Origin: Halomicrobium mukohataei DSM 12286
GTDB taxonomy: Archaea; Halobacteriota; Halobacteria; Halobacteriales; Haloarculaceae
Direction of reading: 5' to 3'
Length of the DNA stretch: 32,000 nucleotides
Assembly: GCF_000023965.1 (NCBI RefSeq)
Contig: NC_013202.1
Location: forward strand, 150,001 to 182,000
Positions 4,931 to 22,412 of the stretch are shown in pieces. The notes under the pieces are model-generated. The model ran no database searches. It had not been told where the DNA came from and was given only the letters and a program-made list of their open reading frames with translations. Position numbers and translations under genes: made by a program. Numbering within the stretch: the first letter of the stretch is position 1; each line of letters begins with the position of its first letter.

Positions 4931-5037
4931 ATCAACCAAGCCGCAAGACACCTACAAATAAATTGATATCGGAGATGCACGCCGGCGAGCGCGGAGCCGT
5001 CGAGGGGAGGACGGACGCGTCGTCGGCAACGAGATGG

Positions 5038-6615: not shown

Positions 6616-7335
<720 letters not shown>

Positions 7336-7381
7336 TAGTGATCTTCTCATCTTTGTCGATATTGCTTAAACTTGTTCATAG

Positions 7382-8431
7382 TTATAGCTCAAAGAAATTG
7401 CGTCGCTGCTCTGCTTTCTGGCGATCGTTGCGCCGGTCGTAATGCTTGTCGAGAATCTCCTCGCTCGCGTTCATCCGATCGGAGACAAGCGACCGATCTT
7501 CGTCGGCCAGCCGGTGCGCAGTCACCCGTCCACTCCGAACGTCGTGGGGCGAGCGCGACGACGGGCACTTGCTCATCTCAGAGTAGTGGGTCCACTCACA
7601 AGTGTCCGGATCTTTGTCGTGGGGACACTCCTCTCCGCGCCAACATGGGGGCGAGACTCGGTAAAGCGTATCCCGGCAGCACGACCGCGACACCCGGCCG
7701 CTCTTCGTCGTCACCAGCGGCGCACGGCCCTGATCGTCGGTCTCCTTCTCACGTGGACCGTCGATGTAGTCCTTCAGAATCTGGGCGACGTGGGGGCTGA
7801 TCGCGTTCCATCGCTCGCCCTTCTCCTTGTTCTTGAGCGGGGTTCCCTTGTTCGGACGATGGACGAAGTGAACCGCCGGCCCATCGGCACCGGGACGGTC
7901 GCCGTCGAGATCGCAGTCGCCCACGTCAAGCGCGCGAAGGCCACCGGTCCGGCACCCGGTGTGCCAGAACAGCAGGACGATCACGTGTCGGCGGCTGGCG
8001 TACTCGTACCGTTCGAGCCAGTCCAGTATTTCGAGCGCGCGGTCCGGGTCGGGCGTAGATTCACTCACGTCCTGTCCCGGATTGATCTTCGGCAGCGGGA
8101 CCTGCTCGTACAGCGCTTCCGGCACGGCTTCGATGTCGCCACAGAACCGGAGGAACGCCCGAAGCGTCCCCATATCGCCGCGAAGGGTGACGGTCTTCAG
8201 TTCTTTGCCTTCGTCGGAATAACCACCCTCACGACGCCAGACGCGATAGGCGTACAGGTCGCGCCCAGACAGTTCGTTGAGGTTCGCGATACCTTCCTCG
8301 TCGCACCACTGGATGAAGGCCTGTAGTCGGTAGTACTGGCCTTGGAGGGTCTGTTCGGTCGCATCGTCTCTGGCCTCGATATACAGATCTACAGCCTCGG
8401 AGGGCGACAACGGTTCGAGATCGTCGCTCAC
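7382..8431 (-). CDS. Tyrosine recombinase / phage-type integrase
   Basis: N-terminal SAM-like core-binding region. Catalytic contexts HTGCRTGGLRAL (Arg), SPHDVRSGRVT (H-x-x-R) and ILDKHYD (Tyr). GTG start overlaps the upstream stop as GTGA. Confidence 0.9.
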   Translation of the reverse strand: MSDDLEPLSPSEAVDLYIEARDDATEQTLQGQYYRLQAFIQWCDEEGIANLNELSGRDLYAYRVWRREGGYSDEGKELKTVTLRGDMGTLRAFLRFCGDIEAVPEALYEQVPLPKINPGQDVSESTPDPDRALEILDWLERYEYASRRHVIVLLFWHTGCRTGGLRALDVGDCDLDGDRPGADGPAVHFVHRPNKGTPLKNKEKGERWNAISPHVAQILKDYIDGPREKETDDQGRAPLVTTKSGRVSRSCCRDTLYRVSPPCWRGEECPHDKDPDTCEWTHYSEMSKCPSSRSPHDVRSGRVTAHRLADEDRSLVSDRMNASEEILDKHYDRRNDRQKAEQRRNFFEL

Positions 8432-8688
8432 TCGTCGTCACCCCCGTCGAGATCGCGGTCGTACGGACCGACCGGCGTTACCAGCCGGACCTGTTCACGT
8501 TCGCGAAGGTTACCGGTCTTCCGGTCGTGCAGCTCGTGAAACTCGCCATCGACGCCCTCAGTGCGGGCGCAAGAGGCACACCAGAAGTGGTGGTTGGTGG
8601 GCTCCCAGGAGCGGTGGCCGCGGGGACACACGAATCGCCAGCGATCGCTACGACTCTCAATTCGGACGGTCTTCTTCTTCTCCAACAT
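8428..8688 (-). CDS. Small zinc-ribbon protein co-transcribed with the integrase
   Basis: Start taken at MLEKKK (ATG 8688). CPRGH...CASC cysteine pairs. 4-nt overlap with the integrase start. TATA-like CTTTTACC lies about 30 nt upstream. Confidence 0.5.
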   Translation of the reverse strand: MLEKKKTVRIESRSDRWRFVCPRGHRSWEPTNHHFWCASCARTEGVDGEFHELHDRKTGNLREREQVRLVTPVGPYDRDLDGGDDE

Positions 8689-8715
8689 ACCCAGTCGAAA
8701 CCGACAGAGGGCATG

Positions 8716-8757
8716 GTAAAAGGAGCGAGTCTTATCCGTGTGGTGAAAGTGAAAGTG
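8716..8757 (-). promoter_or_regulatory. Putative promoter of the zinc-ribbon/integrase operon with tandem hexamer repeats
   Basis: The reverse complement of 8716-8723 reads CTTTTACC, 28-35 nt upstream of ATG 8688. GTGAAAGTGAAAGTG (8743-8757) lies just upstream. Confidence 0.3.
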
Positions 8758-9072
8758 ATCGATTCGTCGCCCCGTCCCGCCGAAATAGCGATTTCGGCCG
8801 GTGAAAGTAAAACGAGGGCGCGGGCGGTCGGTCGTGCCACCTGTGTTAAGGCGGGAGGCTCGTCTCGTAGTCATGTGTTCGCTCGCAAGAGCGGCACCCC
8901 GGCCGACGGACATGGGCGTCGGCCACCGACTCTTTCTCTCGGACCTGCTCGCCGAGGGCCGGGTCTGTCGCTCTTGGCTCGCCAATTGTGACGACCTGAC
9001 TTAAGTTTTGATGCACGTATCGTAGTTATAGAATGCACAAAACGTGTTCTAAAAATCGTCACCGGATCAACT

Positions 9073-9354
9073 ATGAGTGATTCATCAGACAGTCAAAACG
9101 AAATGCACCGTCGGGTTGAATGGCTGAAACCCTCTGACCGGGTGATTGTGGCTGAGTTAGCAGAGTATGGCGGTTGGATGAAGCCCTCGTCACTCGCCCT
9201 CAATATTTCGTATACACGTCGCCATATCGCTCGACGGTGTCAGGTGCTGGCTAAACACGGGTTATTGGAGCGGCATGACGAAACGGCAGGTTATCGAGTG
9301 ACAGAACACGGTCACCAGTTCCTACAAGATAAACTAAATGAAGACGATCTCTAA
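9073..9354 (+). CDS. Winged helix-turn-helix DNA-binding protein (MarR/PhiH1-repressor-like)
   Basis: 93 aa. LKPSDRVIVAELAEYGGWMKPSSLALNISYTRRHIARRCQVLAKHGLLER fits a wHTH layout. Divergent from the integrase operon across an AT-rich spacer. Confidence 0.7.
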   Translation: MSDSSDSQNEMHRRVEWLKPSDRVIVAELAEYGGWMKPSSLALNISYTRRHIARRCQVLAKHGLLERHDETAGYRVTEHGHQFLQDKLNEDDL

Positions 9355-9438
9355 TGTGGGGTGCAGTTCCACCATCAGATCCTTTCGAAGTGCGGGACAA
9401 CACATAGATTGAAGATGTCTGAGTGATTGCCACAAGTC

Positions 9439-9945
9439 GTGAAGCGACGAACATTTTTCATACTCAGCATCGAGATAACTATCGCTCTCACCGGGATCGC
9501 AACATTGGGCGCTGTCGTTGTCTTCAGCGATATCACTGAGCCATCGGAGACCAGCCCACAACAAGACACACAAACATCTCAGGGGACTCCAACACCAGAG
9601 TCAAACTCTGAAAATGAGATCACAGTGCGGTCCCCAGAACCCGTTTCTACACCAGCCCCAGAGATTGCAATAAATGCCATGCAGGCCGAGGGTGGAGAGG
9701 GGTACCAGCTCGAAGCAGGGGCAAATACTTGGGGCGCAGCGGATTCTATTGCAATCGCATATAATGGTGAAGAAATTGAACGTTTAGCGAGTGGGGAAAC
9801 GGAGATCATTGCGTCTTCAGAGTCAGGTACACATGATCCACTTCCGAAAGGGGCAGTGGTTGTCGCTTACGCAATTCACGGAGACGACAGAACAGAACTA
9901 CTTCGTTGGGAAGTCAAATCTGGTGGAACATCTAACACGAGATAG
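9439..9945 (+). CDS. Secreted or membrane-anchored protein, function unknown
   Basis: A GTG start at 9439 gives MKRRTFFILSIEITIALTGIATLGAVVVF (signal/anchor), followed by a Ser/Thr/Pro/Glu-rich linker. AT-rich DNA. Confidence 0.55.
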   Translation: MKRRTFFILSIEITIALTGIATLGAVVVFSDITEPSETSPQQDTQTSQGTPTPESNSENEITVRSPEPVSTPAPEIAINAMQAEGGEGYQLEAGANTWGAADSIAIAYNGEEIERLASGETEIIASSESGTHDPLPKGAVVVAYAIHGDDRTELLRWEVKSGGTSNTR

Positions 9946-10010
9946 ACGACGGGCCTTGGTTTGTAGACGGTCAGGATTGAATCAGCCTTTCAGCATTAGA
10001 TCTGACAGCT

Positions 10011-10019
10011 AAATATAAA
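10011..10019 (+). promoter_or_regulatory. TATA-box-like element for the 10045 gene
   Basis: AAATATAAA is centred about 30 nt upstream of ATG 10045, which fits a leaderless transcript. Confidence 0.35.
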
Positions 10020-10044
10020 CCAATAGCAATTCTGGAACTGCACA

Positions 10045-10563
10045 ATGGCAGCAGTCTCGAAATCGGAAACTAAAGTCCTTGATCCGCACATCCCAAAGGG
10101 AGAACAGTTAATCGAAGCCTACAGTGGGAACGAGAAAACCGTCGCCGTGACGGACCGCCGAATTATCGATCTCTGGCATCACGAAGACGACCGGAGCCAG
10201 GAGACAGAACTTCGGAGTACCCTGCTCACCAACGATTACATCGTCGGGACCGAGTACGAGCGCGAACAGGAATCGAACACTCCCGATCTGGAACGTCTCA
10301 TCGGATTTCTGCTCGGGGTGTGTGGCGTCGGTGGAATCCTGTACGGGCTCGACGGCACGGGAGGGGCCATCTTCGGCGGCTTTGTCCTGCTGGCCCTCAG
10401 CGCGCTCATCATCTACCTCACCGACACCACGGAGAGCGGGGAAGTGGAGATCACTCTCTACCGAGCTGGAGAAGTCCCGAATCGGACGTGGACGTTCCCG
10501 AAAGGCGAGACGGGTGTTCCGCGGGCGATCTCCGAGCAAGTCGCTACGTTGCACCGGCCCTGA
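10045..10563 (+). CDS. Membrane protein with bacterial-PH (YdbT/DUF304-like) features
   Basis: GEQLIEAYSGNEKTVAVTDRRIIDL resembles the bPH N-terminal strand pattern. Central Gly-rich double TM segment (LIGFLLGVCGVGGILYG...FGGFVLLALSALIIYL). Confidence 0.6.
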   Translation: MAAVSKSETKVLDPHIPKGEQLIEAYSGNEKTVAVTDRRIIDLWHHEDDRSQETELRSTLLTNDYIVGTEYEREQESNTPDLERLIGFLLGVCGVGGILYGLDGTGGAIFGGFVLLALSALIIYLTDTTESGEVEITLYRAGEVPNRTWTFPKGETGVPRAISEQVATLHRP

Positions 10564-10608
10564 ATCGACGACCGAACGCTTATGCCGCCGTTTCACGTAT
10601 CACCTCCC

Positions 10609-10866
10609 ATGGCAAGTGCAACGCGAGACGACCGTACCGACGGCGTGGTGTTCGAGCAGGAAGCGGACGGGAGCATCACCGCCAAGGACCTCGAAACGGG
10701 ACTGGCCCGCGGCGGTGACACTCGCGCGGAAGCGCTCGCCCAGCTCGCGGAAGTTCTCGAACTCGAAGCCGGTGGTGGGGAACCGGTGACCGACGACGAT
10801 CTCGAAGCGATGGGCCTCGATCCCGACGACGAGGGTGACGAAGAACTGCCGGACTTCATGCAATAA
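10609..10866 (+). CDS. hicB: HicB-family antitoxin (short form)
   Basis: VVFEQEADGSITAKDLETGLARGGDTRAEALAQLAEVLEL fits the HicB N-domain pattern (partner-binding fold ending in TxxEAL). Lies immediately upstream of hicA. Start taken at ATG 10609. Confidence 0.7.
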   Translation: MASATRDDRTDGVVFEQEADGSITAKDLETGLARGGDTRAEALAQLAEVLELEAGGGEPVTDDDLEAMGLDPDDEGDEELPDFMQ

Positions 10867-10872
10867 CTTCGG

Positions 10873-11118
10873 ATGGTGAGGACGACGTTCTCTGGCCGCG
10901 AGGTAGTGAAAGTGCTGCGTAACCACGGCTTCTCTCCGAAATCACGAACCGGGAGTCACGTCCGGCTCAGGTACGAACATCCTGAGACTGGGGAAGTCCG
11001 TAACGTGGACGTGCCACAGCACGACGAAATTCACATCGGAACGATACGCTCTATCGCTGACCAGTGTGGAGCCAACGACTTCGAAGCGTGGTGCGAGTGG
11101 ATCGACGAGAACAGTTGA
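10873..11118 (+). CDS. hicA: HicA-family mRNA interferase toxin
   Basis: 81 aa. SGREVVKVLRNHGFSPKSRTGSHVRLRY...VDVPQHDEIHIGTIRSIADQCG matches the HicA/YcfA pattern, including the GSH motif. Confidence 0.85.
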   Translation: MVRTTFSGREVVKVLRNHGFSPKSRTGSHVRLRYEHPETGEVRNVDVPQHDEIHIGTIRSIADQCGANDFEAWCEWIDENS

Positions 11119-11121
11119 GCG

Positions 11122-11322
11122 TCACTTCTCGACAGCCAGACGTTGAGCGATCTCGATCTCATAGGTACCGGGCACCGTCAGCGTCTCGGCGATCTCCCGC
11201 TTCTGCCGAACCGTCAGATCCTCTCGATTCAGTACCTCCCGAATTCGATCGTCGATCCGCCGAGAAAATTCAGCAGACTGCACGAGTGTCGTCGTCTTGT
11301 TGCAGTCCCAGAATCTCTTCAT
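11122..11322 (-). CDS. Hypothetical island protein, N-terminally replaced paralog of 5038..5382
   Basis: MKRFWDCNKTTTLVQSAEFSRRIDDRIREVLNREDLTVRQKREIAETLTVPGTYEIEIAQRLAVEK. DNA similarity to copy 1 stops near 11312. Confidence 0.45.
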   Translation of the reverse strand: MKRFWDCNKTTTLVQSAEFSRRIDDRIREVLNREDLTVRQKREIAETLTVPGTYEIEIAQRLAVEK

Positions 11323-11848
11323 CGGCGACGAGTTCAGTAGCAAGGCCGGCGGGAGCGGCAAAGATGGCTATCTTACTCGCCAGAAGATAGGGCCGCTGGT
11401 GTACAAGATCCGGAAGTACAACGGGCTCCTGATCTACATCGCCCACGACGAGAGTTCGATCCACCCGCTACTCTGGCGGCTGGGTGTCATCACCAAGAAG
11501 GTGAGCAAGAAGAAGGCCGTCGTCGCCGACCACGTGAGCAACGGCCAGCTCCGGGACAAGCGCTTCGAAGTCGAGGGCGTTCCGCCGACAGACTGGCGGT
11601 ACAACGACAAAGAAGCCTCTTCGTGGTCGTGGACAGACGAGGAAGATGGGGAAGAGCCCGACCCCGACGAAGTGGCCTACGACGTGGCACTCTGGACGGT
11701 TCGGGAGTGCAAGCAGGACGGACTGACACACCGAGAGACGGCCCAGTACGTCCCATTCGGAAAGTCGTGGGTCGGTGATCGGTGGTCCGAGATTCAGGAC
11801 GGGAAGCACAGCGGAGCCATGGACAGGGTTCGGGCGATAACCGCATGA
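11297..11848 (+). pseudogene. N-terminally truncated Zot-like/plasmid-virus type NTPase gene
   Basis: No P-loop is present. The ORF begins essentially at a Walker-B-like LFIGDE, followed by KIRKYNGLLIYIAHDESSIHP (like the Zot R-x-G...hhhh-Q/H segment). Its first codons are antisense to the neighbouring paralog gene. Confidence 0.5.
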
Positions 11849-11891
11849 CGACGCGCGTATGTCCGCGTGTCCGCGTCCATCGTCGACCCTT

Positions 11892-11953
11892 CACTGGCCC
11901 ATACCGCTGGGCCCGACCCTCCAGGTTCGGGCGTGGGCGCATGGGCGCGGTGT
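11892..11953 (+). repeat. GC-rich hairpin-forming leader element, copy 1 (upstream of the nuclease gene)
   Basis: CACTGGCCCATACCGCTGGGCCCGACCCTCCAGGTTCGGGCGTGGGCGCATGGGCGCGGTGT. Possible stems GGCCCA/TGGGCC and GCCCGA/TCGGGC. Repeated at 13218-13280. Confidence 0.6.
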
Positions 11954-12008
11954 TCTCGTCGGCAGAGGAGTGTACATATACAATCGCGCGACGAGCGCGT
12001 GATGCGCG

Positions 12009-12401
12009 ATGAGTCGCTCGCACAAGGCCAACCACTACGGGACGCTCGTGGAGCGCCAGGCCGCGGAGCGGTACAACCTCGAACTCGACCGGTGTAGCTG
12101 GCACGACGCAAAGCGATCGGACGGCACCCCAGTCGAGATCAAGGCTGCGATGCACCGGCACAGCGATGGGCAGCCTGGTACGTTCAAGCTCTACGATCAG
12201 TACCACGAGCAACTACGGGAAGCGAACGGGTGGTACGTCTTTTTTGTATACCGGGTTCGTGGACTGGGTGTGGAAGTTCTACGGTGGGAGATGGGTCACT
12301 CGTCACGACTGCCGAAATTGGTCTGGCATGGAGGTGGAGATCATCGGGAAGCCAAACAGGCGAAGATCGCGATCAGTCTTCTCACGCAAAACCAGAAGTA
12401 G
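12009..12401 (+). CDS. PD-(D/E)xK-like nuclease-fold protein (130 aa)
   Basis: WHDAKRSDGTPVEIKAA provides a D...E-x-K arrangement typical of restriction-endonuclease-like or resolvase-like folds. The C-terminal 38 aa are duplicated in the fragment at 13281-13397. Confidence 0.6.
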   Translation: MSRSHKANHYGTLVERQAAERYNLELDRCSWHDAKRSDGTPVEIKAAMHRHSDGQPGTFKLYDQYHEQLREANGWYVFFVYRVRGLGVEVLRWEMGHSSRLPKLVWHGGGDHREAKQAKIAISLLTQNQK

Positions 12402-12442
12402 AAGGCTACGTGCACGTAGGTCGGTTACGCACGGGGAGCTGG

Positions 12443-13075
12443 TTATGACACCAATCCCGGATCGTCACCCCAGAAGGGAATCCCAATGTGATCTGCGACA
12501 TCCTCGATCGCGTCGTCGGAAAACGGATGCTTCGAGACGATCAAGATACTGCCGTCGTCGAGTTCCTCGACTCGTGGGGCAGGCGCTGACAGGAGTGTAT
12601 CGCGTCCGATCTGCTCGACTTCTGTAGGTGGGTAGAGATCCAACCAGCTGATGAACCGTCGAGGTGACGATGGGTATCTACTGTCCGGCGTCGGCGCGGC
12701 CAGCGGTTGGTTCGGTGCGACCCCATAACACATGACTGGTGGACTCTCAATTGCTGAGTAAATATCTTTGACAGCCCCAATCAAAGATGCGAGATTGTCT
12801 GCTTCAGCTAGTTTGGTAGCATCGTCGAGTCGTCCTCCCTCTACGTAGAATGTAGCCACTGTTCCGTTCTGATGACGGCCTGGTGATGCAGTCGCTCGCA
12901 ATTCGATATCGAAGTCATTTCGAGCAAAGATGATACGGAGTGTACCGGTGAGGTCTACACCTTTTTCGAACAGTTCGTACTCGTTCTTCGACTCTGCGAT
13001 CTCGGCAGCAGTATCAATTATTTCATCCTCGTGGTCAGCCGGATACAGTAGATCAATGTGAATCGAGTCGGCCAT
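12443..13075 (-). CDS. Hypothetical protein (210 aa), acidic, no recognisable motif
   Basis: Clean ORF with ATG start and ordinary composition in a lower-GC cassette. Convergent with the nuclease gene across a 41-nt gap. Confidence 0.6.
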   Translation of the reverse strand: MADSIHIDLLYPADHEDEIIDTAAEIAESKNEYELFEKGVDLTGTLRIIFARNDFDIELRATASPGRHQNGTVATFYVEGGRLDDATKLAEADNLASLIGAVKDIYSAIESPPVMCYGVAPNQPLAAPTPDSRYPSSPRRFISWLDLYPPTEVEQIGRDTLLSAPAPRVEELDDGSILIVSKHPFSDDAIEDVADHIGIPFWGDDPGLVS

Positions 13076-13217
13076 CGTTATTCTCCCCCAGTGATGACGC
13101 TGACTGGGCTTCCAATCCTAAACCCTTCTACGTTATTAGCGAAGTGATAAACTTCATCGTCGATGGCAGCGTTGTCTGCAGTCCTTTCGCTCACGCGGAG
13201 GATGATAGTCGGCCTTA

Positions 13218-13280
13218 CACTGGCCCATACCGCCGCGCCCGACCCCTCGGGTTCGGGCGTGGGCGCATGGGCGCGGTGTC
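13218..13280 (+). repeat. GC-rich hairpin-forming leader element, copy 2
   Basis: Near-identical to 11892-11953 with a few substitutions and a 2-nt length difference. The GCCCGA/TCGGGC stem is retained. Confidence 0.6.
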
Positions 13281-13397
13281 GAAGTGCTACGGTGGGAGAT
13301 GCGTCACTCGTCGCGACTCCCGAAGTTGGACTGGCATGGTGGCGGTGAGCATCGGGATGCGAAACAGACGAAAATACCGGTTACAGAGCTTCGATAG
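13281..13397 (+). pseudogene. C-terminal fragment of a second nuclease paralog, fused directly to the leader repeat
   Basis: Reads EVLRWEMRHSSRLPKLDWHGGGEHRDAKQTKIPVTELR*, against EVLRWEMGHSSRLPKLVWHGGGDHREAKQAKIAISLL in 12009..12401. No start codon. About 320 nt are missing relative to copy 1. Confidence 0.6.
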
Positions 13398-13869
13398 CCC
13401 ACTGTTTTGAGATTCGGTTATCAGGACCTTAACTTAGTCAGAGTCGATCATGTCCGCACTTTTCGGAACGACAGCCACTGGGCGATTGAGATTTTCATGT
13501 GGCGGATAGTCGTGATCGCCGAAATGGATTTCATCTGCTCCGTTGAATCCGGTGACTGCGGCCGAGTCGACGAGCTAGCGTCCAGTGTGTCAGATGGAGT
13601 CGGCAACAGATAGCGAGTCAGAATCTGCTTTCGCCCTCCAAAGCCGACCCATCAATCGAAGGTCGGTTGTAAGAATTCGTCACCACTGGAGTCTGATAAC
13701 TGTGTCTTCAGCCTCAATCCCAGTGCCGTCTGCGGATTCAACAGAGCAGTCTGCGGTGTATTTTGGACAGGTGGCCTTAGCCACACGACGCGCCGGGGTG
13801 GGGTGAAAGGGTACGATATTGCCGCAAAAATGGTGTGTTGAACAGTGATGCCTCTATCCAGGGGGCGCG

Positions 13870-14368
13870 CTACCCCTTGGACCAGTCAGGCGGACAGCCC
13901 GCTTCCATCCAGGCTTCGAAGTCGAAGCCGTCGCGAGCTTGCTCCCAGCGGCGTCGTTCGTCGATCTTGTCGGCGGTACGGCGGCCGTTCGCGAACACGT
14001 TTCGCAGATCGCGGAACCGATCGCGGCCACCGTCGGCGTACTCGATGGCGTCGTACACTCCCGCTGGGCGTCGGACAGTGGCGTCAGATCCTCTTTGTAC
14101 TCGAAGAGAGACGACTGGTACCTCACCGCCAATCCCTCCCGAAGCACTCCGGATTCCCACAGAGCTGGTAGTGTGGGCGGTACGCGGCGATTGGAACGTC
14201 CGTGAAGTCCGCCTCGTCGCGAGTATCCGCTTCGGGACAGGCCGGGCGTGGCTCGTCGCTGTCGGGGTCCTGACGGTGCAGGGTGTCCGCGTACTGGGAG
14301 CGATTGCGGACGCCCTGGTCGGTGTCGAGCTGAGCGTCGGCGGTCGCGCGCTGGCTCACGCCGACCAC
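13870..14368 (-). pseudogene. Gene with two frameshifts abutting the proximal att repeat
   Basis: Protein-like sequence continues across three ORFs in three frames: 14123..14368 (...NPECFGRDW), 13854..14147 ([22 protein letters not shown]) and 13870..14160 ([19 protein letters not shown]...[10 protein letters not shown]). Confidence 0.5.
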
Positions 14369-14390
14369 CCCGTTTCTGCTCCTAGTTTCG

Positions 14391-14555
14391 CAGGACGGCG
14401 GCGACCCGGCACTTGTCCCACGTTCAACTCAGGATTTCGGGGGTGTTCGTGCGAAAGCAGATCGCCCAGTAGCGGGCTCGAAATGCACGTAAACACAGCT
14501 TTCGCTGTGTGCCATAGTTCGGTTGAAAATGGGATCCGCCCTCCCCGATTTGAAC
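14391..14555. repeat. Proximal att-like direct repeat (tRNA-Tyr 3' end plus about 145 nt of trailer)
   Basis: Partner of 7046-7207. The trailer includes a perfect hairpin ACACAGC-GAAA-GCTGTGT (read on the tRNA strand) that is imperfect in the distal copy. Confidence 0.6.
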
Positions 14556-14608
14556 GGGGGGCAAGTCGATCTACAGTCGACTGCTCTACCAGTCTGAGCT
14601 AAGGGCGG
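14535..14608 (-). tRNA. tRNA-Tyr (anticodon GUA), no intron, CCA not encoded
   Basis: Hand-folded cloverleaf: acceptor CCGCCCT/AGGGCGG with the C1-G72 pair typical of archaeal tRNA-Tyr, D arm GCTC/GAGC, anticodon arm GTCGA-CTGTAGA-TCGAC, variable TTGCC, T arm CCCCG-TTCAAAT-CGGGG, discriminator A. Confidence 0.95.
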
Positions 14609-14782
14609 TTGCACTCGAACGTAGCGCCGGTCCCAGACTTAACGGTTATCATTCTGTACGAGGGCGGGAGGGTCTCACAGCCACACCAGTCCGTCAGACA
14701 GCGACGGCGACGCCCGCGTAGTTGGACGGACAGAGACGAGACGCAAAACGGTGGCAGACGGGCGTCAGACGCCGCGGGAAGA

Positions 14783-14790: not shown

Positions 14791-14819
14791 CCCCGGCGAT
14801 AATGTGTATGACGAGTCGA

Positions 14820-15413
14820 ATGAGTAAGATCACGTTTCGCGCCGACGACGACCTCATCGATCAGCTCGAGGAGTTCGACGCTTCCAAGAGCGAGGTCATG
14901 CGCGAAGCGCTCCGGGAGTATCTGGAAGCGCCAGACGAATCGCCGGGGGCCGTCGACGCGTCCAGCGGCGACGGCGGCGACGACAGCATCGACGATCTGA
15001 TCGTCGACCGCGTGGACGCGATCATCGAGGAGCGCCTGAACGGCCGGCTCCAACCGCGGTCTCCCCAGGACGTGAACGTAAACATCACGCTAGAGGGTGA
15101 AAACGCCAGCCGAGAGGCGGTGTCGGACGATCAGTCGGCGGTGTCACACGACCGTCGGCGCGAGTCGTCACACGCCAGCACCGATCGTAAGACAGCCGGT
15201 CGTGAGGACGACGGCGCACCCACAGCCGGACGTAAGACGTGTGGCCAATGTGGCGAAAACGTCACGGGCGACCACGTTTACTGCCCGAACTGCGGTGAGA
15301 AGGCAGCCCACCGCGTGTTCTGTGACTGCGGCGACGAGCTCCGGTCGGACTGGGGTTTCTGCCCGAGTTGCGGGCGTCGAACCCCGGCAGCGGACGTGCT
15401 CGAAAACAGCTAA
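14820..15413 (+). CDS. cdrL: Ribbon-helix-helix protein with C-terminal double zinc ribbon (CdrL-like)
   Basis: N-terminal MSKITFRADDDLIDQLEEF...KSEVMREALREYL is a CopG/RHH signature. C-terminal CGQCG...CPNCG...CDCG...CPSCG zinc ribbons. Sits directly upstream of cdrS-ftsZ2. ATGs also occur at 14802 and 14808. Confidence 0.7.
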   Translation: MSKITFRADDDLIDQLEEFDASKSEVMREALREYLEAPDESPGAVDASSGDGGDDSIDDLIVDRVDAIIEERLNGRLQPRSPQDVNVNITLEGENASREAVSDDQSAVSHDRRRESSHASTDRKTAGREDDGAPTAGRKTCGQCGENVTGDHVYCPNCGEKAAHRVFCDCGDELRSDWGFCPSCGRRTPAADVLENS

Positions 15414-15640: not shown

Positions 15641-15829
15641 ATGGAGCGTGTGACACTACGGATTCCGAAGCAGCAGATCGAAGAGGTCGAACGAATGGTC
15701 GAAACCGGGGAGTACCCCAACCGCAGCGAGGCTATCAGGTCCGCTGTGCGCGAGATGCTCGCCGAGCAGGAGGGCGGGAAGGAACGACCATCCGAGAAAC
15801 GCGAGCGTCGCACCTACGTGAGGGCCTAA
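15641..15829 (+). CDS. cdrS: Small CopG/ribbon-helix-helix transcription regulator CdrS
   Basis: 62 aa. [40 protein letters not shown] is a classical RHH. Its stop lies 2 nt before the ftsZ start, matching the published cdrS-ftsZ2 arrangement in haloarchaea. Confidence 0.8.
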
Positions 15830-15831
15830 CG

Positions 15832-17025
15832 ATGCAGGACATCGTCAAGGAAGCCCTCGAGCGCGACGAAGCGGAACAACAGCAACTGTCCGACGCAGAC
15901 GTGGACGGCTTCGGTGACCCTCGGATCGTCATCGTCGGCTGTGGCGGAGCCGGTAACAACACGGTCAACCGTCTGTACAACATCGGCGTCGACGGTGCCG
16001 ACACGGTGGCGATCAACACCGACAAGCAGCACCTCAAGATGATCGAAGCCGACACGAAGATCCTCGTCGGCAAGTCCCTGACCAACGGGCTCGGTGCCGG
16101 TGGCGACCCCTCGATGGGCGAGCGCGCTACCGAGATGGCACAGGGCACGATCAAGGAAGTACTGGGCGACGCCGACCTCGTGTTCGTGACCGCCGGCATG
16201 GGTGGCGGGACGGGGACCGGTGCGGCACCGGTCGTCTCGAAGATCGCCAAAGAACAGGGCGCGATCGTCGTCGGCATGGTGTCGACGCCGTTCAACGTCG
16301 AACGCGCCCGCACGGTCAAGGCCGAGGAGGGCCTCGAACGGCTTCGCAACGAGGCCGACTCGATCATCGTGCTGGACAACAACCGCCTGCTCGATTACGT
16401 CCCGAACCTCCCGATCGGCAAGGCGTTCTCGGTGATGGACCAGATCATCGCCGAGACGGTCAAGGGAATCAGCGAGACCATCACGCAGCCGTCGCTGATC
16501 AACCTCGACTACGCCGACATGACCTCGATCATGAACCAGGGCGGCGTCGCGGTCATGCTGGTCGGCGAGACCCAGGACAAGAACAAGACCGAAGAGGTCG
16601 TCAAAGACGCGATGAACCACCCGCTGCTGGACGTCGACTACCGCGGCGCGAGCGGCGGACTGGTTCACATCACTGGCGGCCCCGACCTCACGCTGAAGGA
16701 GGCCGAGGGGATCGCACAGAACATCACCGAACGGCTCGAAGCCAGCGCCAACGTCATCTGGGGCGCGCGTATCCAGGAGGAGTACAAGGGCAAGGTCCGC
16801 GTGATGGCGATCATGACCGGCGTCCAGTCGGCGCAGGTGCTCGGCCCGTCCACCCAGAAGCAGGCCGACAAGTCCCGCGAAGCGATCCAGGAAGTCGGTG
16901 ACGACACCAGCTTCGACGCCAGCCAGAACGTCGAGGAGTTCGACGATCAGGGCGGCCAGAGCTACGGACACACCGACGGCGGCCGGGACACCAAAGAGAA
17001 GAACAACGGAATCGACGTCATCTGA
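15832..17025 (+). CDS. ftsZ2: Cell division GTPase FtsZ (FtsZ2 paralog by context)
   Basis: GCGGAGNN and tubulin signature [10 protein letters not shown]. Start at MQDIVKEAL (ATG 15832). The track ORF from 15553 is an upstream extension that overlaps cdrS. Confidence 0.95.
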
Positions 17026-17063
17026 CCCGGCGACGCGGCACCCGGTTCGGACTGTCGACTCAC

Positions 17064-17068
17064 TTTTT
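17064..17068 (+). terminator. Oligo-T tract after ftsZ2
   Basis: A TTTTT run lies 39 nt after the ftsZ2 stop. Archaeal termination commonly uses oligo-T. Confidence 0.35.
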
Positions 17069-17225
17069 GGCCGCGATGACTCCCAGACACGGACGATCAA
17101 GCAGATGCCAGCGACGGCGACAGTCGAGCAACAGATATCAGTGAGTAGTAAATAGTACTTTTGTCCTGCAGGCCGTTCGTGACGTGTAGAACACCGGTCG
17201 TCCGCCGACCGCCGTCCCGAATCCT

Positions 17226-19337
17226 ATGGTTACCGATACGACGCCGTCGATGACAGCGGTCGAAGCACCCTACGGGTTGCGACTCGCCGATCCGATCGAG
17301 GGGGCACAGTTTACGCTGCTTACCCAACGCCCAGTGACGCCGGCCTCGATCGACCCGTCGACGTTCGCGCCGCCCGTCGATACGGCCGCCGTGATTACGG
17401 CCACGACGCTAGAGACCCCCTATCAGGTCGACGCGCTCGTTCGTGACGACGAGCTCTCGATCGTCGCCGAATGTACCAGCAGCGAGCGGACCGCTGTCGG
17501 ACCCGGCGAGTACTACGTCGAACTCTCCTCGGCCAAGATGAAGCTGTACCTCTACGTCGAGGGCGAGGTCGTGTTCGAGCCCGGGACCGATCAGGTGCGG
17601 CTCTCGTTTCCGGGTGCCAGCGAGCTCCGGGTCGGCGTTCGGTCGCTCCACGAGCAGCCGGCGGCGACGATCACGACGACCGACGACCTCGAAGCACTGG
17701 CGACCGCGCTGTCACAGCTGGGCTCGGCGCTGAAAACGACGAGCTGTGAGCGGTCGTTCCCGACACTCCGCGGACACCCGCCGCTAATCGAACGCGGCCC
17801 GGAGCTTTCGGTCCCGGCGGCGCTGTCCGCGCCGGAGACGGGCGTGACCATCGAAGTGCCGCCGCGACTGGACGCGCTCTTGCCGATCACGTCGCTGGCG
17901 TACTACCTCGGTGCGACCGTGGAAATCGGATCGCGTCCGATGCTCCACGCCGACGGCTGGTCGCACTCGCTCGACGGCGACGACGGCTTCGAGACGACCG
18001 TCGCGCGCGTGCTCAAGCAGGTGTTCCTGCTGGACTGCGTCACCCGGACAGAGGGGATGTACGACGTGCCGCTGTACGAACGGGACCGCGTCGAAGCGGC
18101 CGTCGATCTGGACTTCCCGGCGCTGTACGACCAGCCACTCGCAGAACAGGTCCGCCAGTACCTACAGGTTCCCTACGAGGCGGTCGCAGAGGCGGTCCCG
18201 ACGTGGAAGCTGACCGCCGACGTCGTTCCGGAGTCCTCGGCACTCCCGGTGTTGCCCTTCCTCGCCGACGAGCTCGCGGTCGTTCGCTGTCCCGACGATC
18301 CCACGGCTACAGACGGCGCGAAGGCGGACCTCTCGCCGAAAGTAACCTCCTTCTTCGATACGTCGGACCGCGGCGGCGAAGCGTTCGTCAGATCGACGGC
18401 GACCCGAAGCGAGACCGCGACTCGGGGACTCGACCAGACGGTGTTCACGCCCGAACCAGCAGACAGCATCGAACAGACCTACGTCGGCGAGGGGATCCCG
18501 CTGGGCGCGAGCAAGATGAGCGTCGAGGAGTACGACCGCCGGCTGGAGTTCGACGCCAGTTCCCGCGAACGGACCCGCATTCTCGTCGTCTGCAACGACC
18601 CCCAGATGAGCGACGAAAACGTCGTCGGGGACATCTACGGCACGCGCGAGTGGATCGAGTTCGACATCACCACGCGCGAGCAGGTCACGACCGACGAACT
18701 CGCCGACCTCCTCGCCGCTGACGCCGACTTCTTCCACTACATCGGTCACGTCGATCCCGACGGCATCCGCTGTACCGACGGCCACCTCGACGCCGAAACG
18801 CTGACGGAAGTCGGCGTCAACGCGTTCCTGCTCAACGCCTGCCAGTCCTACAGCCAGGGCCGCGCGCTCATCGACGCCGGTGCGATCGGCGGCATCGTCA
18901 CCCTGACCGACGTGCTGAACAAGACCGCGACGGAGATCGGCCGGACGGTCGCCCGGTTGCTCAATCAAGGGTTCTCGCTGCTGTCGATGCTCGGCCTGCT
19001 GAAAAAGCGAAACCGGCTGGCCCAGCGCTACATGGTCGTCGGCGACGGCAACGAGACGCTGGTCGAGAGCGAGTCAGGGACACCTATTTCTGCTAATATT
19101 ACACAGGACACATCTGATGGTTGTAGAGTGAGTGTCAACGCGTATCCAACCAAATCTTACCCGATGGGTTCGCTAGTACGACCATATATAACTGGTGAAC
19201 AGAAGTGCTATCTGAATTCAGGTGAACTAAACACGTTCAACGTCTCTGTAGAACGGCTCAACGACTTCCTCGAAATGCAGTTATTCCCAGTTATTTCAAA
19301 CGACAATCTCTACTGGAGTGACGAATACTCCGTCTGA
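17226..19337 (+). CDS. 703-aa protein with C-terminal CHAT/caspase-like cysteine protease domain
   Basis: RILVVCND strand (aa 451). Candidate catalytic His in FFHYIGHVD (H508, nt 18747). Candidate catalytic Cys in AFLLNACQSY (C539, nt 18840). CHAT-like ending RYMVVGDG. The N-terminal ~450 aa have no motif I recognise. Confidence 0.75.
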   Translation: MVTDTTPSMTAVEAPYGLRLADPIEGAQFTLLTQRPVTPASIDPSTFAPPVDTAAVITATTLETPYQVDALVRDDELSIVAECTSSERTAVGPGEYYVELSSAKMKLYLYVEGEVVFEPGTDQVRLSFPGASELRVGVRSLHEQPAATITTTDDLEALATALSQLGSALKTTSCERSFPTLRGHPPLIERGPELSVPAALSAPETGVTIEVPPRLDALLPITSLAYYLGATVEIGSRPMLHADGWSHSLDGDDGFETTVARVLKQVFLLDCVTRTEGMYDVPLYERDRVEAAVDLDFPALYDQPLAEQVRQYLQVPYEAVAEAVPTWKLTADVVPESSALPVLPFLADELAVVRCPDDPTATDGAKADLSPKVTSFFDTSDRGGEAFVRSTATRSETATRGLDQTVFTPEPADSIEQTYVGEGIPLGASKMSVEEYDRRLEFDASSRERTRILVVCNDPQMSDENVVGDIYGTREWIEFDITTREQVTTDELADLLAADADFFHYIGHVDPDGIRCTDGHLDAETLTEVGVNAFLLNACQSYSQGRALIDAGAIGGIVTLTDVLNKTATEIGRTVARLLNQGFSLLSMLGLLKKRNRLAQRYMVVGDGNETLVESESGTPISANITQDTSDGCRVSVNAYPTKSYPMGSLVRPYITGEQKCYLNSGELNTFNVSVERLNDFLEMQLFPVISNDNLYWSDEYSV

Positions 19338-19340
19338 GAA

Positions 19341-19478
19341 TCACGGGCCAGCGAATGTAGCGGCAGCTGCACCAGCAGCAGCGCCGGCCTGCGTCAGCAG
19401 TAGCAGCACGGCAAAGATCATGCCGATGAGTTTCGGGTGCGATGCGAGCGTGTCTTTGACAGATTGTGTCTGGCTCAT
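19341..19478 (-). CDS. Unlisted 45-codon ORF encoding a single-TM peptide
   Basis: MSQTQSVKDTLASHPKLIGMIFAVLLLLTQAGAAAGAAAATFAGP*. ATG at 19478 is preceded by a very AT-rich tract (TTAGATAAATATATTT about 25-40 nt upstream). The stop lies 3 nt from the convergent CHAT gene stop. Confidence 0.45.
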   Translation of the reverse strand: MSQTQSVKDTLASHPKLIGMIFAVLLLLTQAGAAAGAAAATFAGP

Positions 19479-19715
19479 AGCCACTTGTGTACAGGGGCCA
19501 TGGTGAAATATATTTATCTAAAGAATAATAATAAATTATTAGTTCAATTATCTCCATCAAACTCAGGAACCGGTGCGGTCCGGCGAATTTGAGCGCCACC
19601 GGGACGTGTTGTATTGGAGATCTAAGACGAGTGAAGATATTTGTCGGTGTAGAGCCATCAGTACGGTAGTGAACGACAGAACCCACACCGTGATCGTAGT
19701 GAGGAGGGCGGTGCT

Positions 19716-20300
19716 GTGACCGAGAACTTCGATCTCGGACCGGCCGTCGCGGACGCGACGAACGTGTTGCTGGTCGCGCCGGGCGTCGGGGACACTGCAG
19801 ACCGGCTGTGCTGTGATGTCCTGACGGCCGACGGGCTGCCGGAGCACGTCGTCGGGGTGACGATCAGTGACGGGCCAGAGGAGAAGGCCACGCGGTGGCG
19901 AGAGCTGCTCGGCCCGGCACCGTCGCTGTCGATGCTGGGGATCGACGGCGTGACCCGCTCGGCCGCGGTCCAGCAGGCACCGACGGCCGACGACACGACC
20001 ATCGAGTATCTCGACAGCTCCGAGCCCATCCGGGAGCTCGGCGAGCGGATCGCGACGAAGATCCACCGCGAAACCGACACCGCGGTCTGTTTCGACTCGA
20101 TCACCGACCTCCAGGAGTGTATGGGACGTGAAACCGCCTTCGAGTTCCTGCACGTGCTCGGCTCGCGCGTCAGAGCCGGCGGTGCGACCGGCTACTACTA
20201 CATCGATCGGACGGTCCACGACGAAGAGACGATGACGCTGTACTCGACGCTGTTCGACGCCGCGATCGAGGTCGGCTCGGACACCGACGGAGGCAACTGA
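19716..20300 (+). CDS. KaiC/RecA-superfamily-like protein with degenerate Walker A (probable pseudo-ATPase signalling partner)
   Basis: NVLLVAPGVGDTADRL sits where a P-loop is expected and has no GK[ST]. TAVCFDSITDL is Walker-B-like. GGAGG lies 10 nt upstream of the GTG start. Confidence 0.6.
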   Translation: MTENFDLGPAVADATNVLLVAPGVGDTADRLCCDVLTADGLPEHVVGVTISDGPEEKATRWRELLGPAPSLSMLGIDGVTRSAAVQQAPTADDTTIEYLDSSEPIRELGERIATKIHRETDTAVCFDSITDLQECMGRETAFEFLHVLGSRVRAGGATGYYYIDRTVHDEETMTLYSTLFDAAIEVGSDTDGGN

Positions 20301-20352
20301 TCGTGCAGCGCGTACGCGTGGCGTCTCCCGGTCCGGCGATGCGAGGGAGACG

Positions 20353-20931
20353 ATGAGCAACGCGGCGTTCGATATCTCCGTGACCGACAACGTAGTCCTG
20401 GTCTGTATCGACGACGACGGCTGTCGCCAGCGGGTGACGGCGGTGCTGCGCGAGGAGTGGCCCGTCAGGACGGCGATCGACGCGGAGGCGGCCCTCGACA
20501 GCCTCGACGAGGCGGTGTCGGTCGTCGTCGTCGACGCCAGAGACGGTATCGAGCAGTCGATTCCACGCCCCCAGCGCGACGAGCGCCCGTTCGAGCTGGC
20601 GGCGCTGGTCGACGAGTCGGTCGACGGCACCGACAGAGCCGTCGAGTGTGTCACCAAACCGATCTCGCCGGAGACGCTTCGCGCGACGGTCGAGCGCCTC
20701 CAGCGCCGCGTCGAGTACGATCAGCTACTCGGGCGCTACTACGCGGTCGCCAGCGAGTACGCCGCCGCGGCCAGCGGTCACCAGCGAGAGCCAGAGGCGG
20801 TGTCGGAGCTGAAAGGGCGACTGTCGGCGATGCGGACGCGGCTGGACGAACTCGCCGACGGCCTCGACGACCACGACGCGTTCTCGGTCGCACTGGGCGC
20901 GCCAGACGAGACGGAACCGCCTGACGAGTGA
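20353..20931 (+). CDS. Response regulator, receiver domain plus HalX-type coiled C-terminal domain
   Basis: VLVCIDDDG acidic pocket, acceptor Asp in VVVVDARDG, and VTKPIS (Lys-Pro). The C-terminal LQRRVEYDQLLGRYYAVASEY...LKGRLSAMRTRLDEL resembles HalX. Confidence 0.8.
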   Translation: MSNAAFDISVTDNVVLVCIDDDGCRQRVTAVLREEWPVRTAIDAEAALDSLDEAVSVVVVDARDGIEQSIPRPQRDERPFELAALVDESVDGTDRAVECVTKPISPETLRATVERLQRRVEYDQLLGRYYAVASEYAAAASGHQREPEAVSELKGRLSAMRTRLDELADGLDDHDAFSVALGAPDETEPPDE

Positions 20932-20932
20932 G

Positions 20933-21330
20933 TCACGTGGCTCCGGTCTCGTCTGAGCCGTCGACACCGTTGGCGCTCTCGTCTGAGAGCACCTCGACCG
21001 AAGGAGTTCCCAGCGGGTCGTCGACGAATCTGAGCTTCCCGTTCGTCGTCCCGACGTAGACGATCTCCGTCGCGCAGTCGCCGTCGACATCTGCCGTCGT
21101 CAGTGGCGCTTTCATCGCACTCACGCCAGTGAGGCGTTCGGTCCCGCCACCGCTCGCTTTGCGGTTGATCAGGATTTCGTTGCTCCCGTCGACCAGGACC
21201 ACTGCTGGCGTGCCGTCGCCGTCGGCGCGGGAGTCTGTTGGTCAGCCAGGCCGAACAGGAACGTCCCCGCCGCCGCGACCAGCAGGACGACGATCGCGAC
21301 CACCGCTGAGACGCTCCGGTCGCCGATCCC
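20933..21330 (-). pseudogene. Frameshifted gene for a membrane-anchored FG-GAP/VCBS-like repeat protein
   Basis: A hydrophobic anchor SAVVAIVVLLVAAAGTFLFGLA in one frame (ORF 21169..21492) is followed, after a shift near 21215-21235, by ADGDGTPAVVLVDGSNEI...ADVDGDCATEIVYVG repeats (ORF 20933..21202). Confidence 0.4.
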
Positions 21331-21413
21331 AGAGAGTCGTGGGTCGCCAATCTCGTACAGGGTAGAGACTCGAACGGCAAAGAAGTCAGTGTTACCTCCG
21401 GTCCGGAGAGCGA

Positions 21414-22412
21414 TCAGACCGCTTCCAGCGCGTCCAGCAGATTGCACTTGCGACAGCGATCCCGGCCCGTCGGAGCCCCACAGTTCTCGCACTCGCCGAA
21501 GTCGGCGTCGCGGTCGTCTTCGCTACGGTAGGCCTCGGCGGCCAGCGCGGCGAGTTTCTCGTAGCCGGCCATGATCGAGTGGCGCGTGCCGGGGTGGTTC
21601 TCTTCGAGGCCGAGCATGAGGTCCTGTATCTCGCCGCGATAGGCCTCCTCGGCGTGGGGACACTCGGTGATGTGGGCCGGCAGCTCCTCGAAGCGAGCGT
21701 ACAGAGCGACCTCCTTTTCTGGGATGTCACGGAGTGGTTTGGCCCGCGGGATGTGCTGGTCGGTCTCGGGACGCTCTCGGTCGGCGGGTCCGTCGCCGTC
21801 GGCGTCGAACGGTCCCAGCGACGAGTCGAAGTGCTGGGCGATCTGGGTCACGTCGCCTTCGAGGACGTTCATCAGCGCGGTCTCGGCCTCGTCGTCGAGG
21901 TTGTGGCCCGTCAGCAGCTTGTCGGCGTCGAGTTCGTCGGCGTACTTCGAGAGGAGATCCCGACGAAAGACGCCACAGTACGCACAGGCGGCCATCCCCT
22001 CGGGATCGTCCTCGACGACCTCGTCCATGCGCACGTCGAACTCCTCGTCGTAGCTGACGACCTCGTGGCGGATGCCCAGGTCGTCGGTCAGCGTCACCGA
22101 GGCGTCGAGGCTCTCGTCGCGGTACCCCTCGATTCCCTCGTGGATCGACAGCGCGACGAGTTCGATCCGCGGGTCCTCGGCGAACACGTCCTGTAAGATC
22201 TGCGTGAGGACGACGCTGTCTTTGCCGCCCGAGAGCCCGATCACCCACGTCTCCGGGTCCTCCGGCGTGGCGTCGCGAGGCACCAGCCCGTCCTCGCGGA
22301 TACGGCGACGGACGCGCTTCTCGACGGTCCGACAGAAGTGCTCTTCGCACATGTGCAGCCCCGAGTAGGCCGCGTGCATCACCGCCGGTGCGCCACACTT
22401 GTCACACTCCAT
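21414..22412 (-). CDS. ncsA: tRNA 2-thiolation PP-loop ATPase, Ncs6/Tuc1 family (NcsA)
   Basis: N-terminal CDKCG...CEEHF zinc finger, SGGKDS PP-loop, C-terminal CENCG...CRKC zinc finger. 332 aa, as expected for the family. Confidence 0.85.
   Translation of the reverse strand: MECDKCGAPAVMHAAYSGLHMCEEHFCRTVEKRVRRRIREDGLVPRDATPEDPETWVIGLSGGKDSVVLTQILQDVFAEDPRIELVALSIHEGIEGYRDESLDASVTLTDDLGIRHEVVSYDEEFDVRMDEVVEDDPEGMAACAYCGVFRRDLLSKYADELDADKLLTGHNLDDEAETALMNVLEGDVTQIAQHFDSSLGPFDADGDGPADRERPETDQHIPRAKPLRDIPEKEVALYARFEELPAHITECPHAEEAYRGEIQDLMLGLEENHPGTRHSIMAGYEKLAALAAEAYRSEDDRDADFGECENCGAPTGRDRCRKCNLLDALEAV

Follow-up and report, generated by a model that had tools for sequence, protein, structure and literature searches.

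Caspase-fold proteases carry out the regulated proteolysis behind cell death in eukaryotes, chromosome segregation and the recently discovered immune cascades of bacteria. Caspase-like activity has also been measured in Haloferax, and the archaea have been described as being without clear gene homologues (PMC3615174). The subject here is a gene cluster of Halomicrobium mukohataei DSM 12286 that lies on contig NC_013202.1 between positions 150,001 and 182,000; this stretch of 32,000 nucleotides is called the window, and all coordinates are counted from its first letter. At its center is P703 (17226-19337, plus strand; GenBank ACV46307), which encodes a 703-residue protein of a family of fixed architecture and of about 700 amino acids (aa), predicted to be a caspase-fold cysteine protease. 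Beside it stand genes for a membrane micro-protein (DUF7503), for a KaiC-like protein without a P-loop (DUF7504) and for a REC-HalX response regulator. We read these genes as a signal-controlled limited-proteolysis signalling module, and give that inferred mechanism roughly even chances of being right.

The closest described systems are found among the CHAT proteases. Like SAVED-CHAT (Protein Data Bank, PDB, entry 8tl0), the TPR-CHAT protease Csx29 of Craspase and the anti-sigma factor DdvA (8rw5), which we take to contain a CHAT domain, P703 has a clan CD caspase-like alpha/beta core. It also has, as CHAT proteases do, a His and a Cys after successive strands (HYIGH...LNAC) and a large non-catalytic N-terminal region fused to the catalytic one. 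In contrast to the SAVED, TPR and ZAS anti-sigma fusions, the N-terminal region of P703 is a beta-sandwich followed by an unmatched alpha/beta domain, and, in contrast to the CHAT defence systems, P703 has no CRISPR partner and none from a cyclic-oligonucleotide-based antiphage signalling system (CBASS), its partners being a micro-membrane-protein, an inactivated KaiC-like protein ('iKaiC') and REC-HalX. Fused TPR, SAVED or CARF domains and adjacent genes for Cas7-11, Cas10, CD-NTase, TIR or gasdermin were sought with PADLOC, with Pfam on the module and its flanks, and by clustering the neighbours at 80 loci, and none was found. These 80 are the best of 567 P703 loci, come from many genera and had their six-frame open reading frames (ORFs) searched with iterated hidden Markov models; they make up the linkage survey used throughout.

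Other likenesses are with proteases and signalling proteins outside the CHAT group. Gingipain R (C25) and separase (C50) have the same catalytic fold (Foldseek probability 1.0), but P703 has neither the secretion signal and pro-domain of gingipains nor the helical ARM/HEAT-like N-terminal region of separase. The bacterial pairs of gasdermin with a caspase-like or CHAT protease offer an analogy drawn from gene linkage, as the P703 gene is tightly linked to one for a seemingly membrane-inserted product; the partner, however, has 45 residues and one helix instead of the roughly 250 residues of a gasdermin, and the two genes are convergent instead of forming an operon. A P-loop-less KaiC/RecA-like protein together with a typical haloarchaeal REC-HalX protein recalls the KaiC-centred signalling of archaea (PMC5847659), and no paper in the literature searched links such iKaiC or REC-HalX parts to a caspase-fold protease or to a micro-membrane-protein. 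The novelty of the locus is thus a CHAT-type protease with a new, sensor-like half and new partners.

The evidence for a protease comes foremost from the predicted structure of the catalytic domain, aa 440-615 (18543-19070, plus strand). An AlphaFold2 model of P703, built on an alignment of 36 homologues (A1), has a mean predicted local distance difference test score (pLDDT) of 72.6, with values of about 76-86 over aa 445-610. A first reading made from the letters of the window (the sequence-only reading) had seen a strand-His...Cys layout in four motifs, RILVVCND (from aa 451), FFHYIGHVD (aa 502), AFLLNACQSY (aa 533) and RYMVVGDG (aa 601), and all four are where it had placed them. In the model, His508 (18747-18749) follows the strand 500-506 as G-H508 and Cys539 (18840-18842) follows the strand 531-537 as A-C539; these two are the proposed dyad. 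When the model was searched against the PDB with Foldseek, the top match was the SAVED-CHAT filament 8tl0, with an expectation value (E) of 1.9e-5, and gingipain R (1cvr, E 9.7e-5), separases, DdvA and caspase-11 were matched as well. The probability was 1.0 for SAVED-CHAT and DdvA as for gingipain R and separase, at sequence identities of 12-16% for the last two, so the caspase/CHAT fold that had been proposed from the motifs is borne out at the level of predicted structure. The alignment with gingipain RgpB extends over 336 columns, past the catalytic domain of about 175 residues; a beta domain presumably follows the catalytic domain in RgpB, and this may explain the length of the alignment. 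P703 itself ends in a small beta-rich domain (aa 621-703; 19086-19334, plus strand; pLDDT about 70-90).

Conservation agrees with the fold. H504, H508, N537, C539, S541 and Q544 are invariant in 36 of the 36 homologues in A1 and then in 85 of 85 when paralogues at 37% identity are included, and the invariant His and Cys argue for catalysis. Profile databases bring the family close to CHAT: P703 of the window matches nothing in Pfam or NCBIfam, and Pfam CHAT (PF12770) matches seven of the 36 A1 sequences (E 0.0088-1), weakly and consistently over the His/Cys region. The best-scoring relative, found outside A1 (P0318), reaches 23.0 bits (E 6.5e-5) against a gathering threshold of 24, so that, by sequence profile, formal membership is narrowly missed by one bit. 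One relative matches Pfam Peptidase_C25 (E 0.006), and a few database records bear the automatic names 'CHAT domain-containing' or 'caspase family protein'. Taken with the modelled fold and the dyad, P703 is supported as a clan CD caspase-fold (CHAT-like) cysteine protease.

The half of the protein before the catalytic domain is where P703 departs from the known CHAT proteases. Its first 440 or so residues have no match in Pfam, NCBIfam or the PDB sequences, in keeping with the earlier statement that some 450 N-terminal residues resembled nothing recognisable. Structural comparison of this part, which had been proposed at the same time, gave an answer for one portion only. The beta-sandwich of aa 1-150 (17226-17675, plus strand; pLDDT about 85-95) drew generic Foldseek matches alone, to the P1 domain of YidC and the N-terminal domains of GH31 (E 4e-4 to 1e-2, root-mean-square deviation 10-15 Å), and the middle alpha/beta domain of the AlphaFold2 model, aa 151-325 (17676-18200, plus strand), had no structural match in Foldseek and no sequence match when the family profile was compared with PDB sequences. 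A separate AlphaFold2 model of aa 1-335, with a pLDDT of 84.9, likewise brought up nothing beyond these generic matches. The best-conserved motifs of the family lie in the middle domain, ERSFPTLRGHPP at aa 175-186 (17748-17783) and DCVTRTEG at aa 270-277 (18033-18056), the latter reading DCxTRTEGxY across the family, and both fall in lower-confidence loops of the full-length model. E175, R176, R182, R274, E276 and W327 are invariant in all 85 sequences. Such a density of fixed polar residues suggests a site for binding or regulation, and the domain is regarded as a putative sensor or regulatory domain. The linker to the catalytic domain, aa 326-433 (18201-18524, plus strand; pLDDT 27-54 over aa 327-433), is variable and of low predicted order, and is rich in insertions and deletions in A1. 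Since P703 has no hydrophobic segment, it is probably cytoplasmic; nor has it a signal peptide, and DUF7503 has one hydrophobic segment.

Whether P703 works with its neighbours is a question of gene linkage, and here the survey is informative. The DUF7503 gene, which in the window lies on the minus strand at 19341-19484 and encodes 45-47 residues (Pfam PF24335, E 5e-17), stands convergent beside P703 in 70 pairs, and the surveyed loci that lack it are mostly those in which a contig end cuts the locus. The pairing is nearly obligate and the pair is accepted as the core of the module; the peptide, which had been treated as a side feature, is the most faithful partner of the protease. The gap from stop to stop has a median of 0 nt, the stop codons overlap in 25 of the 70 pairs, and in the window they are 3 nt apart (19335-19343). 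As the stop codons touch or overlap, the two transcripts must overlap too, and the touching stops are kept across sequences that are only 37-45% identical.

The other two genes are found beside P703 less regularly, and in more than one order. Of 82 P703 copies, 59 adjoin a DUF7504 gene, which in 39 (the arrangement of most genera) immediately precedes P703 in the same orientation and in 20 (Haloarculaceae including the window) lies downstream of the peptide gene. REC-HalX is adjacent in 25 loci of two families, following DUF7504 in Haloarculaceae and, in the Haloferacaceae (Haloferax, Halogeometricum, Halobellus and Salinirarus), lying upstream of the peptide gene and co-directional with it. 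Pairwise distances of P703 and DUF7504 are correlated (Spearman 0.63), and because paralogous modules find the same partner loci across genomes, the module appears to have been inherited and duplicated as a unit. Persistent adjacency in spite of rearrangement is a classic sign of functional coupling, and it is because the genes stay adjacent in rearranged orders that the module is accepted as one system. The co-occurrence that had been left as an inference is therefore found in other genomes, in two different arrangements, which is good evidence for a single system. An unbiased clustering of neighbour ORFs at the 80 loci brought out no further conserved family beyond synteny at the level of genus or family. 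Genes for Usp, aminotransferase and MBL-like proteins were considered as members and rejected, being confined to related genera.

Some loci depart from the usual plan. At five of those without DUF7504 (L053, L054, L058, L065 and L074, at about 9050-9870) an ORF of about 250-280 residues lies directly upstream of the protease on the same strand; by eye alone it is like the metallo-beta-lactamase (MBL) fold, and it could be an alternative partner or reflect synteny of related genera. Two protease paralogues lie in tandem or a few kb apart at L073 (10001-14303), L021, L036 and L037, and those of L073 follow each other directly, without an intervening peptide gene.

The partners themselves are small proteins of uncharacterised families. 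The DUF7503 peptide of the window scores 61.6 bits against a cut-off of 27 over the full profile length, and may start at a GTG (47 aa) or at the ATG at 19478 (45 aa). It consists of a short polar N-terminus, HP[K/R], one hydrophobic helix, QAG and small residues, and then a variable tail of 7-9 residues before an invariant Gly-Pro; across the family it is a single-helix membrane peptide of 42-47 aa (Kyte-Doolittle peak 2.15). Between its gene and that of DUF7504 lies an AT-rich divergent intergenic region of about 230 bp (19485-19715; tatatttatctaaagaataataataaattattag) with a dip in guanine-plus-cytosine (GC) content, which, from its sequence, probably holds divergent promoters for both genes. 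DUF7504 (19716-20300, plus strand, 194 aa) was assigned with 94.8 bits against a cut-off of 27 (Pfam DUF7504 E 1e-26, DUF7090 E 1e-9). No Walker A motif (GxxxxGK[ST]) occurs in the window protein, which has APGVGDTAD, or in any of the 61 family members aligned, as expected of the KaiC-like protein without a P-loop that had been described; it is on account of this absence that DUF7504 is filed as an iKaiC. The family profile matches KaiC chains weakly (E 0.008-0.03) over a Walker-B-like strand, and a few members have weak Pfam KaiC and DUF835 matches.

The fourth protein, REC-HalX (20353-20931, plus strand, 192 aa), is the regulator that had been recognised in the window. Its HalX part is clear (47 bits; cut-off 23.2). 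Its receiver is weak, at 13.8 bits for Pfam Response_reg against 30.2, and degenerate: it retains the acidic pocket, the acceptor Asp and the Lys and lacks the conserved Thr. Orthologues of the Haloferax type are canonical. Both iKaiC domains and REC-HalX are recognised, uncharacterised parts of archaeal signalling (PMC5847659, Galperin et al. 2018), and the sequence of DUF7504 fits the iKaiC concept of that survey, which also says that no function is known for HalX. None of the four module genes is covered by an NCBIfam model. Two recent papers deal with KaiC-like and HalX regulators of Haloferax, QarABC/CirA and CsmR, which are other genes. The module is consequently an entry to three uncharacterised families together, DUF7503, DUF7504 and HalX.

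The distribution of P703 was followed in a scan of one genome per species, which yielded the 567 loci; the best 80 are all from Halobacteria. Database sequences form 901 clusters at 50% identity, essentially all of about 700 aa and of the same architecture, and about 1500-1800 clusters at 90% identity within the E-value limits among the candidates scored. Some genomes have at least three copies, and 27 haloarchaeal megaplasmids carry one. Identity to P703 is lower the more distant the taxon, declining from Halomicrobium through the other Haloarculaceae to the remaining families, and the Haloferacaceae have a family-level chromosomal synteny around the gene; both fit vertical inheritance, as far as sequence comparison goes. 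The module, which had been taken for lineage-specific, is thus ancient and widespread in the Halobacteria, to which the family is limited as far as sampled, and most haloarchaeal lineages sampled carry a conserved enzyme with a predicted caspase fold.

The orthologue of Haloferax volcanii DS2 is frameshifted (L081 5130-7257, AOHU01000091). Its N-terminal ORF leaves the frame after ...GFEEAVARA, just before DCxTRTEG, and the annotated product is a C-terminal piece of 418 aa that retains the whole CHAT-like domain. DUF7504, DUF7503 and REC-HalX are intact in DS2, and other H. volcanii strains have an intact protein of 681 aa. An error in a single assembly is unlikely, because the 418-aa form is indexed in 307 assembly-collection blocks. 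The frameshift of this laboratory lineage may partly explain why the gene is absent from H. volcanii genetics.

In the mechanism proposed for the limited-proteolysis module, the N-terminal half of P703 and the iKaiC would hold the protease off, or switch it on, upon binding of a ligand or according to a phosphorylation state relayed by REC-HalX, which would tie the protease to a phosphorelay input. DUF7503 would be a membrane tether, an inhibitor or a substrate of the protease. Gingipain R and separase cut after Arg, which makes the invariant HP[K/R] just before the DUF7503 helix a candidate target of a clan CD enzyme with Arg/Lys specificity. The convergent mRNAs, being mutually antisense, could couple the expression of P703 and DUF7503 reciprocally. 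What leads to this proposal is the fold together with the invariant dyad, the equally invariant N-terminal motifs and the gene linkage.

Several points weigh on the other side. The CHAT assignment depends on a modelled structure, as Pfam does not match the window protein, and the PDB sequences gave no usable match to the whole protein, to the family profile or to the catalytic-domain profile. Adjacent DUF7504 is missing from 23 P703 copies, most copies outside Haloarculaceae and Haloferacaceae have no neighbouring REC-HalX, and the module contains no histidine kinase. Beyond the degeneracy of the local receiver, the Halosimplex orthologues have lost the conserved Lys as well. The expansion of paralogues on megaplasmids and the loss in DS2 are typical of accessory or conflict genes too. 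What the protease cuts, with what specificity, and what the peptide does are guesses; the literature searches brought up no biochemical or genetic data on any member and no paper that describes the family or the module, the last as the sequence-only reading had supposed.

The alternative that fares best is a conflict or abortive-infection module, in which a CHAT protease activated by infection or stress would free a membrane-damaging peptide or degrade host proteins. Its analogues would be the cascades of Craspase, of SAVED-CHAT and from protease to gasdermin, and the nearest structural match of P703 is indeed the SAVED-CHAT protease of a type III CRISPR system. The multiple paralogues per genome and the megaplasmid copies would suit it, as would the dispensability of a gene that is frameshifted in DS2, and a small hydrophobic peptide whose gene is convergent with and antisense to its neighbour recalls the logic of type I toxins. 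However, PADLOC recognised neither the protease nor the peptide nor DUF7504, and for REC-HalX it gave only a marginal match to MkoB (E 0.015). Protein searches of 50,697 phage records and of IMG/VR viral contigs brought up no relatives, the conserved neighbours at the 80 loci include no Cas10, Cas7-11, CD-NTase, TIR or gasdermin, and the partners that are there, iKaiC and REC-HalX, are of the signalling type. Defence islands are usually patchy, whereas P703 is broadly distributed, has an identity that tracks taxonomy and lies in stable chromosomal synteny in the Haloferacaceae. The role in conflict or programmed death that had been suggested for the protease is therefore judged unlikely, neither the defence and viral searches nor the neighbouring genes having given it anything relevant.

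A narrower idea, which we consider improbable, makes the P703/DUF7503 pair a protease-gated membrane switch. The antisense mRNAs would act as a toggle, and a signal through iKaiC and REC-HalX would cause the CHAT protease to clip the cytoplasmic N-terminus of the peptide at HP[K/R], so that the peptide became membrane-active and brought about dormancy or death. If true, the pair would be a minimal archaeal counterpart of the pathways that lead from caspases to pore-formers, and the first genetic candidate for haloarchaeal 'caspase-like' biology (PMC3615174).

DUF7503 could also be a precursor, with a hydrophobic signal peptide and a tail of about eight residues, ending in Gly-Pro, that is released as an extracellular cue, and with the protease, iKaiC and REC-HalX maturing or sensing the signal. 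The layout of the peptide would allow this, with K/R in its n-region, an h-region, the small residues of QAG..AA, a variable tail and the invariant GP; the module has a response regulator, and density-dependent signalling with an unidentified small signal is described in Haloferax (PMC13464002). Yet an external tail would be out of reach of a protease that has neither signal peptide nor membrane segment, and the tail, rich in G, S, T, N and A, may merely be unconstrained. Neighbour clustering at the 80 loci found no conserved transporter or histidine kinase nearby, and strains derived from DS2 keep their density response despite the frameshifted P703, which leaves a peptide signal very improbable.

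The position of the window copy, in the 4388 bp (17026-21413) between ftsZ2 and ncsA, raises the further thought of a function in cell division, with P703 as a separase-like protease acting on divisome or chromosome-segregation proteins. Separases are among the structural matches, ftsZ2 is immediately followed by P703 in the window and at L001, L002 and L007, and a Haladaptatus copy (L069) is about 4 kb from cdrL. But only four of the 80 loci have FtsZ2 within 10 kb of P703, the neighbours elsewhere are unrelated, and the separase match is limited to the common clan CD core. An oligo-T run 3' of ftsZ2 (17064-17068) and a TATA-like AT-rich box before P703 (about 17150-17165) suggest that P703 is transcribed apart from cdrS-ftsZ2, and in Haladaptatus the ftsZ2/ncsA slot holds a different gene. 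A divisome function, which had been hinted at by the neighbourhood, is thus very improbable.

The placement itself has a simpler explanation. At L001, L002 and L007, from Halomicrobium or close relatives, the module stands between ftsZ2 and ncsA in the order of the window, and at L003, where the contig starts inside P703 and ncsA is downstream, the placement is probably the same. The fourth locus with FtsZ2 nearby is that of Haladaptatus salinisoli (L069), whose P703 copy is on the other side, beyond cdrL. In H. volcanii the module lies among genes for Usp, an aminotransferase, TrmB and IMPDH, and in the other genera sampled amid unrelated genes. As the module is widespread and the location alone is local, the link with the divisome looks incidental, and the ftsZ2-ncsA placement is most probably a rearrangement of the Halomicrobium lineage without functional meaning. 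Of the insertion into the division locus that the sequence-only reading had put forward, the restriction of the placement to Halomicrobium and a few close relatives stands, and the lineage-specific nature of the inserted genes does not; similarly, the comparison of neighbourhoods across Halobacteria that it had called for found the three genes co-occurring while the slot between ftsZ2 and ncsA differed, as in Haladaptatus. At L069 a PQQ-like beta-propeller protein of 393 aa with a lipobox/Tat-like signal is encoded between the convergent ncsA and ftsZ2 (2028-3209), and because a PQQ-like lipoprotein gene takes the slot there, the slot appears to hold cargo that differs from genus to genus.

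That there is no single system, P703 being a non-catalytic scaffold or the genes unrelated neighbours by chance synteny, is very improbable: the sequence-level family assignment is not above threshold, and haloarchaeal REC-HalX and KaiC-like genes are so abundant that some adjacency is expected (PMC5847659), but the His and Cys are invariant in 85 of 85, the touching stops of P703 and DUF7503 are kept at 37-45% identity, and DUF7504 adjoins P703 in two arrangements independent of each other and is co-inherited through the duplication of paralogues.

All the ORFs of the region are where they had been claimed, from cdrS-ftsZ2 through the 703-aa gene, the convergent peptide and the two-gene unit to ncsA, and the distance of about 4.4 kb first given between ftsZ2 and ncsA agrees with the measured one. 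The upstream boundary of the module, which serves as context only, is the cdrS-ftsZ2 operon (15641-17025, plus strand), with cdrS at 15641-15829 and ftsZ2 at 15832-17025, both on the plus strand and both scoring above the cut-offs of the NCBIfam equivalogs CdrS and FtsZ; the operon is bicistronic (PMC7439475). In the ORF list cdrL precedes it at 14802-15413. Downstream, and convergent with the module, is the tRNA 2-thiolation gene ncsA (21414-22412, minus strand; NCBIfam NcsA, 615 bits against a cut-off of 500). The product of P703 is 100% identical to ACV46307 of H. mukohataei DSM 12286, and RefSeq takes Met9 (position 17250) as its start, which gives 695 aa. Within the 4.4-kb interval the only dips in GC content are those of the promoter region and of the 3' end of P703; the lower GC of the final 330 bp or so of P703 (0.56-0.59) may accommodate termination signals of the opposing transcript.

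An origin of the 4.4-kb interval as a mobile element was considered and rejected, there being no integrase, repeat or marked overall deviation in GC within it. An integrase-like gene and tRNA-associated repeats are present in the window, and sit upstream of cdrL instead of flanking the module. Within 5000-14610, a tRNA-Tyr gene (14535-14608, minus strand) just upstream of cdrL borders a low-GC stretch (GC 0.48-0.56), and in this stretch Phage_int_SAM_1 matches an integrase-like ORF (7382-8431, minus strand) with E 1e-3. A direct repeat of 157 nt (7051-7207/14399-14555, 78% identical) overlaps the 3' end of the tRNA-Tyr gene, and there are further internal repeats. The region probably represents one or two integrated mobile elements or their remnants.

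At the other end, the stop codons of HalX and ncsA are separated by roughly 480 bp (20932-21413), in place of which H. katesii has about 100 unrelated bp. A minus-strand ORF within 21169-21492 contains a segment that resembles a type IV pilin (class III) signal peptide, GDRSVSAVVAIVVLLVAAAGTFLFGL, and an 89-aa ORF in another frame (20933-21202) has a weak FG-GAP match. Together the ORF pieces of 20932-21413 look like the remnant of a frameshifted gene.

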